Positions 13,691 through 16,580 of a stretch of DNA of 64,000 nucleotides are shown piece after piece. Under the pieces are notes generated by a model. The model saw only the letters and a program-made list of their open reading frames with translations, had not been told where the DNA came from and ran no database searches. Numbering within the stretch: the first letter of the stretch is position 1; each line of letters begins with the position of its first letter. Both the position numbers and the translations under genes were made by a program. The stretch is from Escherichia coli (GTDB taxonomy: Bacteria; Pseudomonadota; Gammaproteobacteria; Enterobacterales; Enterobacteriaceae), in assembly GCF_003334765.1 (NCBI RefSeq), contig NZ_QOWT01000010.1, one strand, 5' to 3'.

Positions 13691-14114
13691 CTGGTGGTTC
13701 GCCACATCACCCCGCCTCCGCCAGCTTTGCTGGGCATTCTGGTTGCTGATGTTAGTTACGCTCATTTTTCTGTCATCGACACACCATGAAGAGCGCGACG
13801 CATTAATTCGACTACGGGCAAGTCATCACCAGCAGTGGGCCGCACTGTATCGCCTGGTAGACACCACTCCCTTCAGCGAGGAAAAAACGCTGCCCTTTTC
13901 GCCACTGGATTTTCAGTTATCCGGCGCGCAACTGGTTTCCTGGCATCCATCCGCGCAGGGAGGCGAGTTGGCGTTGAAAACGCTGTGGGAAGCAGTGCCG
14001 TCGGCATTTACACGGCTGGCAGAGCGCAACGTCAGCGTGAGCCGTTTTTCGTTAAGCGTGGAAGGTGATGATCTTTTGTTCACGCTACAACTGGAGACGC
14101 CGCATGAGGGTTAA
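13674..14114 (+). CDS. hofO: PilO-like DNA-uptake/pilus assembly protein
   Basis: 146 aa; overlaps the hofN 3' end; N-terminal TM helix. Confidence 0.8.
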   Translation: MNMFFDWWFATSPRLRQLCWAFWLLMLVTLIFLSSTHHEERDALIRLRASHHQQWAALYRLVDTTPFSEEKTLPFSPLDFQLSGAQLVSWHPSAQGGELALKTLWEAVPSAFTRLAERNVSVSRFSLSVEGDDLLFTLQLETPHEG

Positions 14115-14508
14115 ACGCTGGTTGTTGGCAGGTATTGCATTGTGCCTTTTAACCGGTATGCGTGACCCTTTTAAACCGCCGGAAGATCTATGCCGGATTA
14201 GCGAACTTAGCCAGTGGCGCTATCAGGGGATGGTAGGGCGAGGCGAGCGCATCATCGGTGTAATAAAAGACGGGCAAAAGAAATGGCGACGGGTGCAGCA
14301 AAACGATGTGCTGGAAAACGGCTGGACAATTTTACAGCTGACGCCAGACGTACTAACGCTGGGTACCGGGACAAACTGCGAACCGCCACAATGGTTGTGG
14401 CAACGGCAAGGAGATACAAATGAAGCAATGGATAGCCGCACTACTGTTGATGCTGATACCCGGCGTACAGGCGGCAAAGCCGCAAAAAGTGACGCTGATG
14501 GTGGATGA
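14104..14508 (+). CDS. hofP: PilP-like lipoprotein
   Basis: ORF track 147 aa; trimmed to MRVKRWLLAGIALCLLTG-C start (134 aa) with lipoprotein-type signal peptide. Confidence 0.8.
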   Translation: MRVKRWLLAGIALCLLTGMRDPFKPPEDLCRISELSQWRYQGMVGRGERIIGVIKDGQKKWRRVQQNDVLENGWTILQLTPDVLTLGTGTNCEPPQWLWQRQGDTNEAMDSRTTVDADTRRTGGKAAKSDADGG

Positions 14509-15658
14509 CGTTCCGGTAGCTCAGGTGTTGCAGGCGCTGGCTGAACAGGAGAAGTTGAACCTGGTCGTGTCGCCAGACGTCAGCGGTACGGTGTCGTTAC
14601 ATCTAACAGATGTTCCCTGGAAGCAGGCACTACAAACTGTAGTGAAAAGCGCCGGACTGATAACGCGGCAGGAAGGCAACATTCTCTCAGTGCATTCCAT
14701 TGCCTGGCAGAATAACAATATCGCCCGCCAGGAGGCGGAGCAGGCGCGGGCGCAGGCAAATCTGCCGCTGGAAAATCGCAGTATAACCCTGCAATACGCC
14801 GACGCGGGAGAACTGGCGAAAGCGGGGGAGAAGCTACTGAGTGCCAAAGGGAGTATGACCGTCGATAAACGCACCAATCGCCTTTTGCTACGAGATAACA
14901 AAACGGCGTTAAGCGCGCTTGAACAGTGGGTAGCGCAAATGGATCTGCCGGTCGGGCAGGTTGAGCTGTCGGCGCATATTGTCACCATTAATGAAAAAAG
15001 TTTGCGTGAGTTAGGCGTGAAATGGACGCTGGCCGATGCGCAACACGCTGGTGGCGTTGGGCAAGTCACCACGCTTGGTAGCGACCTCTCCGTAGCGACG
15101 GCGACAACGCATGTCGGTTTTAACATTGGGCGCATCAACGGACGCTTGCTGGATCTTGAGCTTTCCGCGCTCGAACAAAAACAGCAGCTGGATATTATCG
15201 CCAGTCCGCGTCTGCTGGCCTCACATCTTCAGCCTGCCAGCATTAAACAGGGGAGCGAAATTCCATATCAGGTTTCCAGCGGGGAAAGTGGCGCGACGTC
15301 GGTGGAATTTAAAGAGGCCGTCCTGGGGATGGAGGTCACGCCCACGGTGTTACAAAAAGGTCGCATCCGGCTGAAATTACACATCAGCCAGAACGTTCCG
15401 GGGCAGGTGCTACAGCAGGCCGATGGCGAAGTGCTGGCGATTGATAAGCAGGAGATCGAAACGCAGGTCGAGGTCAAAAGCGGAGAAACGTTGGCGCTGG
15501 GCGGCATTTTTACCCGTAAAAATAAATCGGGTCAGGATAGCGTACCGTTGCTTGGCGACATTCCCTGGTTCGGGCAATTATTTCGTCATGACGGAAAAGA
15601 AGATGAACGACGCGAGTTAGTGGTGTTTATCACGCCACGACTGGTTTCCAGTGAGTAA
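14420..15658 (+). CDS. hofQ: Outer-membrane secretin, PilQ/ComE-like
   Basis: 412 aa; signal peptide MKQWIAALLLMLIPGVQA; secretin C-terminal domain; overlaps hofP by 89 nt in another frame. Confidence 0.9.
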   Translation: MKQWIAALLLMLIPGVQAAKPQKVTLMVDDVPVAQVLQALAEQEKLNLVVSPDVSGTVSLHLTDVPWKQALQTVVKSAGLITRQEGNILSVHSIAWQNNNIARQEAEQARAQANLPLENRSITLQYADAGELAKAGEKLLSAKGSMTVDKRTNRLLLRDNKTALSALEQWVAQMDLPVGQVELSAHIVTINEKSLRELGVKWTLADAQHAGGVGQVTTLGSDLSVATATTHVGFNIGRINGRLLDLELSALEQKQQLDIIASPRLLASHLQPASIKQGSEIPYQVSSGESGATSVEFKEAVLGMEVTPTVLQKGRIRLKLHISQNVPGQVLQQADGEVLAIDKQEIETQVEVKSGETLALGGIFTRKNKSGQDSVPLLGDIPWFGQLFRHDGKEDERRELVVFITPRLVSSE

Positions 15659-16058
15659 ACAGCCGTAAAAGCGGTAATGTTTTTACGCTGAACGTGTTTC
15701 ATCTATTTGACGCGCGCAGGTATTTAGCATACAAGGAGTACCGATTTGAGAGTTGGTGCTCTTCGCTGCCTGCGTTCCATGATGATGATTTATCATTCAG
15801 GCGGCATTTTGCTGTCTTTTTTACGCTAATCTTACCCGGTGATTTATCGCCAGAGCGGTGGTAGCAAGGCAGCGCGCTTGCAGCGACCAGATATGCAGAG
15901 GGATGGGTGATTTATTCAGTTGCCAAACCCGCTGGAGTATTGAGATAATTTTCAGTCTGACTCTCGCAATATCTTATGAGGTTTCAGTTCATGTCCTGCG
16001 GCGCTCTCTGAGCGAAGCGGGTTTATCATTAACGAATAGTCTTAGTAGTACCGAAAAA

Positions 16059-16580
16059 ATGGCAGAGAAACGCAATATCTTTCTGGTTGGGCCTATGGGT
16101 GCCGGAAAAAGCACTATTGGGCGCCAGTTAGCTCAACAACTCAATATGGAATTTTACGATTCCGATCAAGAGATTGAGAAACGAACCGGAGCTGATGTGG
16201 GCTGGGTTTTCGATTTAGAAGGCGAAGAAGGCTTCCGCGATCGCGAAGAAAAGGTCATCAATGAGTTGACCGAGAAACAGGGTATTGTGCTGGCTACTGG
16301 CGGCGGCTCTGTGAAATCCCGTGAAACGCGTAACCGTCTTTCCGCTCGTGGCGTTGTCGTTTATCTTGAAACGACCATCGAAAAGCAACTTGCACGCACG
16401 CAGCGTGATAAAAAACGCCCGTTGCTGCACGTTGAAACACCGCCGCGTGAAGTTCTGGAAGCGTTGGCCAATGAACGCAATCCGCTGTATGAAGAGATTG
16501 CCGACGTGACCATTCGTACTGATGATCAAAGCGCTAAAGTGGTTGCAAACCAGATTATTCACATGCTGGAAAGCAACTAA
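16059..16580 (+). CDS. aroK: Shikimate kinase I
   Basis: ORF track 240 aa with a long in-frame leader; trimmed to [19 protein letters not shown] (173 aa); Walker A present. Confidence 0.88.

Follow-up and report, generated by a model that had tools for sequence, protein, structure and literature searches.

Escherichia coli carries 400 bp between hofQ and aroK, the latter encoding shikimate kinase I, and this gap raises two questions, namely what so long an interval does and where the AroK protein begins. We analyzed it within a window of 64,000 nucleotides of an E. coli chromosome (contig NZ_QOWT01000010.1), in which the gap spans positions 15659–16058; positions are those of this window throughout. 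The original prediction, made from the sequence alone, took the gap as one long leader with a stop-free, in-frame extension of aroK, and held that it must contain the promoters of the aroK operon. Our analysis indicates, with a probability of roughly three in four, that the gap is a composite control region rather than a single leader, consisting of a hairpin at the end of hofQ, a distal conserved block, a terminator, the main promoter and a 103-nt leader, and that aroK starts at ATG 16059.

In K-12 MG1655, the distance from the end of hofQ (b3391) to the start of aroK (b3390, 173 aa) is exactly 400 bp, and the annotation of that genome holds no feature between the two genes (coordinates convert as K-12 = 3535123 − window). 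A 901-nt query (window 15400–16300) matches all 5426 of 5426 complete E. coli genomes at an identity of at least 99%. These matches occupy 5427 places, one of them on a plasmid; strain PEC301 (NZ_CM168013.1) has the query in two separate parts. Alignment with the aroK loci of 80 other Enterobacterales species reveals two strongly conserved islands with free-running sequence between them, and when the E. coli gap was scanned for sigma-70 promoters under relaxed criteria, these islands took the top two ranks, at 15920–15949 and 15707–15735. This bears out the expectation that the gap holds promoters of the operon. The notion of a 400-bp leader does not survive, since the transcription start of a working aroK::gfp fusion is located only 103 nt before the ATG, at 15956.

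AroK starts at the annotated ATG

The aroK frame is indeed free of stops for 72 codons upstream of ATG 16059. Its first listed start, GTG 15858 (−67), gives the 240-aa open reading frame (ORF) of the original prediction, and a second in-frame start, ATG 15903 (−52), gives a 225-aa form. The local composition gives a stop probability of 0.053 per codon and hence a chance of 0.02 for a run of 72 open codons, a length attained by 1.9% of 20,000 shuffles; at ~0.02 per gene, dozens of such frames are therefore expected, by our own arithmetic, in a genome of ~4,000 genes. Among the 80 other Enterobacterales loci, the upstream open length ranges from 1 to 133 codons (commonest 27, 9 or 18). Most genera have an in-frame stop 1–40 codons before the aroK ATG, and insertions or deletions (indels) of 1–2 nt separate genera in this region, e.g., GAAAAAATG versus GAAAAACATG and AATAGTCTTAG versus AAT--TCTTAG. 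The aroK ATG and its surroundings are invariant across these loci. The transcription start at 15956 is downstream of both GTG 15858 and ATG 15903, which fall inside the promoter region or shortly before it, and the 103-nt leader contains no in-frame ATG, GTG or TTG. GTG 15858 has an anti-Shine–Dalgarno match of only −3.0 kcal/mol. The crystallized AroK (PDB 1KAG) is identical over residues 1–173, and distant shikimate kinases align to AroK from their residues 5–10. The supplements of SMRT-Cappable-seq and of tetracycline ribosome profiling (Nakahigashi 2016) contain no aroK entry.

Use of ATG 15903 (225 aa) or GTG 15858 (240 aa) for all or part of AroK would agree with the open frame and with the public databases, in which both long forms are deposited as shikimate kinase (AAN44870.2, AAN82598.1, AAP19308.1 and ABE09317.1) and the 225-aa form is called by gene callers on more than 1000 contigs, with lengths of 211–244 aa in the same cluster. 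However, the length of the frame does not exceed chance, stops and indels interrupt the frame in relatives, both of its starts precede the main transcription start, and the curated and crystallized protein has 173 residues. On these grounds the extension is judged non-coding, and we regard an extended AroK as scarcely credible. The 225- and 240-aa forms are recurrent over-extensions by gene callers, an annotation artefact that persists in public databases, and the annotated ATG 16059 (173 aa) stands as the start of AroK. The doubt cast on the choice of start site is thereby removed.

The main promoter and a transcription start 103 nt upstream of aroK

The proximal island contains the best sigma-70-like match in the gap (15920–15949), agreeing at 10 of 12 positions and carrying the TG of an extended −10 element. 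In 26 genera, its GTTGCCAAA and TTGAGATAATTTT occur without change. Equivalent matches are found in Salmonella, Enterobacter and Yersinia; Plesiomonas retains the promoter, and Baumannia part of it. In Baumannia, a reduced, AT-rich endosymbiont, the gene upstream of aroK is no longer a secretin (L088:1040-1200), and TTGCCAAAC and a TAATAAT −10 element are retained.

Published data sets locate the 5′ end of the mRNA. The insert of an aroK::gfp translational fusion, as given by its primer, begins with TCTGACTCTCGC at window 15956 and comprises a 103-nt 5′ untranslated region (UTR) and 11 codons (PMC11878033 supplement); the fusion, driven by PLtetO, gave a quantifiable signal, which in the presence of GcvB was 92% of the vector control (PMC11878033), and GcvB, the one candidate regulator for which a published test came to light, was accordingly set aside as a regulator of the leader. 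A Term-seq study (Adams et al. 2021, PMC7815308) reports three RNA 3′ ends on the aroK strand near the gap, corresponding to 15813, 15987 and 16118. Around the proximal start region (K-12 3519136), its coverage is 103 in the 800 nt upstream and 360 downstream (PMC7815308), which fits the proximal promoter being the main one. Under the EcoCyc-style name "aroKp1", a sigma-70 promoter is also treated in two preprints (10.1101/770891 and 10.1101/2022.07.14.500123). Readings of the conserved blocks as sigma-54, sigma-32, sigma-E or sigma-28 promoters were poor by eye against the consensus sequences and were discarded.

Two promoters upstream of aroK that drive dam, dam P1 and P2, were reportedly mapped by Lobner-Olesen, Boye and Marinus in 1992, and P2 is said to be regulated by growth rate (Lobner-Olesen et al. 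1992; Rasmussen et al. 1995). To judge by position, the two conserved blocks probably correspond to dam P1 and P2. The gap resembles the dam P1/P2 and aroKp1 accounts in having two sigma-70-type candidates, the proximal one with the −103 start used by others; to our knowledge, the terminator between the promoters and the depth of conservation are not part of the dam P1/P2 description.

A conserved, structured leader

The 152 nt upstream of the aroK ATG show a mean identity to E. coli of 84% over 24 genera. In the same comparison, identity is 67% in the aroK–aroB spacer, 85% in aroK codons 21–173 and 98% in codons 1–20. A covariance model built from nine Enterobacteriaceae leaders matches all 64 sources searched (62–142 bits), as well as the independently fetched loci of Hafnia, Edwardsiella, Budvicia and Plesiomonas.

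Two structured elements make up the 5′ part of the leader. The 5′-terminal stem-loop (15957–15987) is 99.1% paired in 62 distinct sequences, with variation only in the bulge, the loop and G-U-compatible changes, and it is conserved out to Plesiomonas. The Term-seq 3′ end at K-12 3519136, i.e., window 15987 (PMC7815308), coincides with the last paired base of this stem-loop. The second element, a GC-rich hairpin (15995–16021), folds in 58 of 58 distinct variants; 89.7% of the alignment cells are paired, versus 32–56% in slid controls, and 4 of the 9 pairs show changes on both sides (33 cells), counts that are biased upward by an alignment fitted to the model. The aroK leader is thus a structured 5′ leader with a covariation-supported hairpin at 15995–16021. 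A scan of 15300–16400 against Rfam 15 at E ≤ 1 returned only a chance match to mir-644 (18.8 bits against a gathering score of 96), and in the literature searched, including by gene-pair names and exact sequence strings of the region, the conserved aroK leader was not found.

Enterobacterial mRNAs such as ompA carry 5′-terminal stabilizing stem-loops. The aroK stem-loop resembles these in that a single nucleotide of the long leader precedes it and a decay-resistant fragment ends at the base of the stem, yet the context of its loop and bulge is conserved far beyond the needs of a simple protective hairpin.

Several other readings of the leader were considered and dropped. The hairpin at 15995–16021 is not followed by a Term-seq end and has a weak U-tract, especially in Pantoea, and was rejected as an attenuator terminator. 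An antisense ORF of 41 aa (16114–15989) over the invariant zone is shifted out of frame by Serratia-type (+1) and Pantoea-type (−2) indels; because of such indels, overlapping ORFs on either strand are excluded. For an upstream ORF beginning AUGAGG, the AUG is AAG in Kluyvera and Superficieibacter, no Shine–Dalgarno sequence is present and the length varies. GAGG at 15979 might serve as a Shine–Dalgarno sequence for AUG 15992, but Yersinia and Pantoea have AGG or CUG in place of this AUG. The likeness of CGAATAGTCTTAGTAGTACCG to a TrpR operator fails on its different spacing and on the lack of conservation in its left half.

Translation initiation and a conservation boundary at codon 20

As originally proposed, aroK lacks an obvious Shine–Dalgarno sequence. 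The best duplex between −22 to −3 of aroK and the 3′ end of 16S rRNA has +0.1 kcal/mol, whereas the same measure gives −7.7 for aroB, −6.8 for damX and −8.5 kcal/mol for hofQ. Of 200 shuffles of the segment 16022–16093, 197 reach or exceed the stability of the native fold (z = +1.74), and this low folding fits an initiation region that is kept open. Some E. coli mRNAs initiate without Shine–Dalgarno pairing by means of A-rich, unstructured upstream sequence. aroK shares with these mRNAs the missing anti-Shine–Dalgarno pairing, an A6 run before the AUG and folding below that of shuffles, but differs in being near-invariant over ~95 nt around the start, beyond what that mechanism needs.

Conservation extends into the gene and ends abruptly. 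At third positions, at most 5 of 59 distinct sequences differ in codons 1–20, versus up to 40 of 59 from codon 21 onward, so that synonymous conservation steps down at +60. Four-fold sites elsewhere in aroK are near saturation, with 0.36–0.66 identity to E. coli. Hafnia, Edwardsiella and the AT-rich Arsenophonus also show the frozen pattern in codons 1–20. The pattern is looser in Budvicia and Plesiomonas, two genera that still conserve the promoter and the 5′ stem-loop. In Arsenophonus, likewise a reduced endosymbiont, no gene is called upstream of aroK (L087:1040-1200), TTATCATTAAC...AATAATCTTAATAAT is retained, and only 4 changes occur within the first 60 coding bases.

The strongest of the three Term-seq 3′ ends (97,011 reads) maps to K-12 3519005, or window 16118 (PMC7815308), which is the last base of codon 20. 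This end has a Rho score of 0.77 (classed as No) and an intrinsic score of 1.0, with a coverage of 201 upstream and 318 downstream (PMC7815308). Being neither Rho-dependent nor intrinsic, and showing no drop in coverage, it points to a stable fragment rather than to attenuation. The aroK ends at −72 and +59 are listed among the stable 5′ UTR and ORF-internal fragments of that catalogue (PMC7815308); aroK is not discussed in its main text, and we add the link to the conservation boundary.

Within the Walker A codons, a small hairpin (16099–16115, GUGC-CGGAAAAA-GCAC, −4.4 kcal/mol) ends 3 nt before the +60 end and varies only in its loop (GGA/GGC/GGG) and in a closing G-U/G-C position (ACT/ACC). 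A CsrA-type GGA in this loop was rejected, most genera having GGC, and so was a long-range helix of 16035–16043 with 16109–16118, in which a frequent A-to-U change in the leader is uncompensated.

A lineage-specific terminator between the main promoter and a probable distal one

Upstream of the main promoter, the stem GCUGCCUG...CAGGCGGC (15765–15806) folds with −18.3 kcal/mol and is followed by TTTTGCTGTCTTTTTT, the stem-loop being stable and G+C-containing and its tail, UUUUGCUGUCUUUUUU, U-rich. The Term-seq end at K-12 3519310, i.e., window 15813, was recorded with 58,094 and 84,035 reads in two conditions and classed as "orphan" (PMC7815308, supplementary files 1 and 3); it lies 7 nt past the stem and within the U-tract, so that the hairpin is a working terminator. 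A mutually exclusive alternative hairpin at 15799–15817 was picked by a consensus terminator scan. Since the 15813 end falls inside this alternative, the larger upstream hairpin is the one used.

The terminator segment is confined to the Escherichia/Salmonella/Citrobacter group. Salmonella has a hairpin of its own at the equivalent place, and the Enterobacter and Yersinia gaps contain no equivalent hairpin. The original prediction saw here a possible terminator of hofQ. Its identification as a terminator is supported by the 15813 end, but its assignment to hofQ is doubtful because a conserved promoter-like block sits between hofQ and the hairpin; moreover, a separate hairpin with a T-run (15662–15685) is found at the hofQ stop and the terminator is limited to the Escherichia/Salmonella group. 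The segment 15765–15823 is better described as a lineage-specific stop between two promoters of one operon, which would also catch read-through from hofQ. Compared with canonical Rho-independent terminators, it shares a stem-loop of −18 kcal/mol, a U-rich tract and an in vivo 3′ end 7 nt past the stem, and differs in the large internal loop of its stem, in its interrupted U-tract (AUUUUGCUGUCUUUUUU), in its lineage specificity and in its place between two promoters of one operon instead of at a gene end. A Fur-box likeness inside the stem was a poor match by eye to the consensus and was rejected.

The hofQ-end hairpin and the distal block

A weaker hairpin with a T-run lies directly behind the hofQ stop (15660–15690). 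It folds with −12.3 to −13.4 kcal/mol (z = −2.4), and a run of five to six T at the same relative position after hofQ is kept across genera. No Term-seq 3′ end is reported at this hairpin; hofQ is little expressed in laboratory culture. This element is probably the likelier terminator of hofQ itself. The hofP (14065–14508) and hofQ (14420–15658) frames overlap by 89 nt, also in the RefSeq annotation. In strain EC09 (NZ_CM169492.1, L002:1784-2481), an IS1A element sits ~25 nt past the hofQ stop and upstream of both conserved blocks; the distal part of the gap therefore tolerates disruption.

The distal block contains the second-best sigma-70-like match in the gap (9 of 12). Most of the 80 Enterobacterales loci have TTGACG and TTAGCWTACAAGG with little or no change, and the 11-nt stretch between the motifs varies freely, a pattern expected of a promoter. 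The block is thus probably an upstream aroK/dam promoter, as predicted from its motifs (Table 1). The 15813 RNA end lies ~70 nt downstream of its predicted start, and the orphan end together with the block upstream suggests either that an RNA of ~70 nt has gone unannotated or that the two promoters are insulated from each other in a lineage-specific way. A short RNA predicted at 15742–15813 (K-12 3519310–3519381) would carry a 5′ hairpin at 15748–15763 and the terminator. The octamer AGTACCGA occurs in both conserved islands, at 15737–15744 (just past the distal TACAAGG) and at 16044–16051 (just before the A-run of aroK); in Yersinia, both copies read TACC(G/A)A.

Table 1. Features of the hofQ–aroK gap and of aroK, in window coordinates.
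Feature	Position	Strand	Remarks
Hairpin and T-run directly after the hofQ stop (15656–15658)	15660–15690	+	terminator-like match 15662–15675 plus AATGTTTTTA
Distal conserved block, TTGACG-17-TACAAG(G), then AGTACCGATTTGAG; predicted promoter	15707–15752	+	sigma-70-like match 15707–15735, 9/12
27-codon TTG ORF, spans the terminator; judged non-coding	15746–15829	+	AAGGAG 7 nt upstream; anti-Shine–Dalgarno duplex −8.0 kcal/mol
Intrinsic terminator, stem-loop 15765–15806 and U-tract 15807–15823	15765–15823	+	fold; Term-seq 3′ end 15813
Stop-free in-frame "extension" of aroK; judged non-coding	15858–16058	+	GTG 15858, ATG 15903
Proximal promoter	15907–15949	+	conserved A/T-rich upstream stretch 15907–15919; −35 TTGCCA 15920–15925; 18-nt spacer; extended −10 TGaGATAAT 15941–15949
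Transcription start of the main aroK mRNA	15956	+	−103 from the ATG; 7 nt past the −10 element
5′-terminal stem-loop, CUGA-c-UCUCG ... UGAGG-uu-UCAG	15957–15987	+	begins 1 nt from the 5′ end; 9 pairs
Covarying GC-rich hairpin	15995–16021	+	−15.6 kcal/mol
A/U-rich unstructured initiation region without Shine–Dalgarno sequence, UUUAUCAUUAACGAAUAGUCUUAGUAGUACCGAAAAA	16022–16058	+	nearly invariant across genera
aroK coding sequence, shikimate kinase I, 173 aa	16059–16580	+	RefSeq annotation; PDB 1KAG; ATG invariant in 80 loci
aroK codons 1–20, nucleotide-invariant	16059–16118	+	ends at a strong RNA 3′ end

How the region may work

These elements suggest the following course of events. In Escherichia and Salmonella only, the terminator 15765–15823 would stop most transcripts arriving from upstream and leave the abundant short RNA end at 15813, and the extended −10 promoter would start the aroK-aroB-damX-dam mRNA mainly at 15956. 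The 5′-terminal stem-loop probably shields the 5′ end of this mRNA and thereby would stabilize it, and the hairpin at 15995–16021 may lock G+C-rich sequence into a fold that stays clear of the start region. Initiating ribosomes would bind the open A/U-rich stretch in the absence of Shine–Dalgarno pairing, presumably through recognition of the ribosomal protein S1 type. The most economical addition would be a sequence-specific partner, protein or small RNA, on the start region, or an independent role of the 163-nt 5′ fragment; the near-invariance of the leader and of codons 1–20 would imply such an extra partner or constraint.

Four points weigh against this account. The 15987 and 16118 ends are not terminators by their authors' scores and may originate from processing, pausing or protection. 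The 5′ stem-loop shows no compensatory double changes, its stem being almost invariant, and a protein-bound DNA palindrome would look alike. Stability of the mRNA and an open initiation region explain neither the near-invariance nor the sharp boundary at +60. Finally, the distal −10 element, TACAAG, is without the usual final T, and the block may be something other than a promoter.

Alternative readings of the terminator and the leader

One could regard the terminator as part of an attenuator, in which translation of the 27-codon ORF over it sets read-through from the distal promoter into aroK. The good Shine–Dalgarno sequence of this ORF (its AAGG is conserved), its position over the terminator and T-run, and the two mutually exclusive hairpins (15765–15806 and 15799–15817) would suit such a device. 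However, its TTG start is TTC in Cedecea and relatives, and its peptide differs completely between genera in our reading of the alignment; because neither the start codon nor the peptide is conserved, we reject this reading as very unlikely. Moreover, a database of 15 billion proteins does not contain this exact peptide, most genera lack the terminator, AAGGAG overlaps the predicted distal −10/start region and so would not be on that transcript, and the main promoter is downstream of the terminator, which makes aroK independent of read-through. The composite region, with the terminator as a stop between two promoters, therefore remains our preferred reading. For the leader itself, two proposals compete. 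The stretch 15956–16118 (163 nt), whose ends are set by separate data sets (the start site of the fusion and the 16118 Term-seq end), may be a discrete conserved leader RNA that serves as the docking platform of a trans-acting regulator of translation or decay of the aroK–dam operon mRNA, and possibly also as a stable 5′ fragment acting in trans as a small RNA or sponge. We put this forward only tentatively. It would account for synonymous conservation that ends exactly at a very abundant RNA 3′ end marking a stable fragment, and for an invariance far beyond the needs of structure or openness; other 5′ fragments of this kind were shown by Adams et al. to act as sponges (PMC7815308). Against it, no partner has been found, GcvB being without effect on the fusion, no Rfam family corresponds to it, aroK is passed over in that main text, and conservation of codons 1–20 relaxes in Budvicia and Plesiomonas. 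Besides, with three mapped ends available, one of them may fall on the boundary by coincidence, for which our estimate is a few percent.

Conservation might instead act at the level of DNA, the imperfect palindrome CTGAnTCTC-N12-GAGGTTTCAG and its neighbours being a transcription-factor operator or a growth-rate control element. The invariance of the stem, which leaves RNA pairing unproven by covariation, would favour this, as would the growth-rate regulation that dam P2 upstream of aroK reportedly shows. However, the stem includes an invariant G-U wobble and every change at a paired position yields G-U, which fits RNA rather than DNA symmetry; an RNA 3′ end falls on the last paired base; the neighbouring hairpin clearly covaries; and the conserved stretch continues for 160 nt beyond the start site, a great length for an operator. 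We consider a DNA element improbable, and less so only than the attenuator and the extended AroK; a leader RNA that docks a regulator appears the better candidate of the two.

Significance of the aroK leader

The points raised by the original prediction are ordinary and largely known, and the signals in the gap are of known kinds; modest further interest lies in the conservation of the leader and its coincidence with mapped RNA ends. AroK has an unexplained second role in tolerance of mecillinam and tazobactam (PMC12125205). A leader frozen from Escherichia to Yersinia, Pantoea and Hafnia implies a layer of post-transcriptional control, of which the literature searched offered no description, and it does so at the head of an operon that also makes the Dam methylase, whose level must track growth rate.

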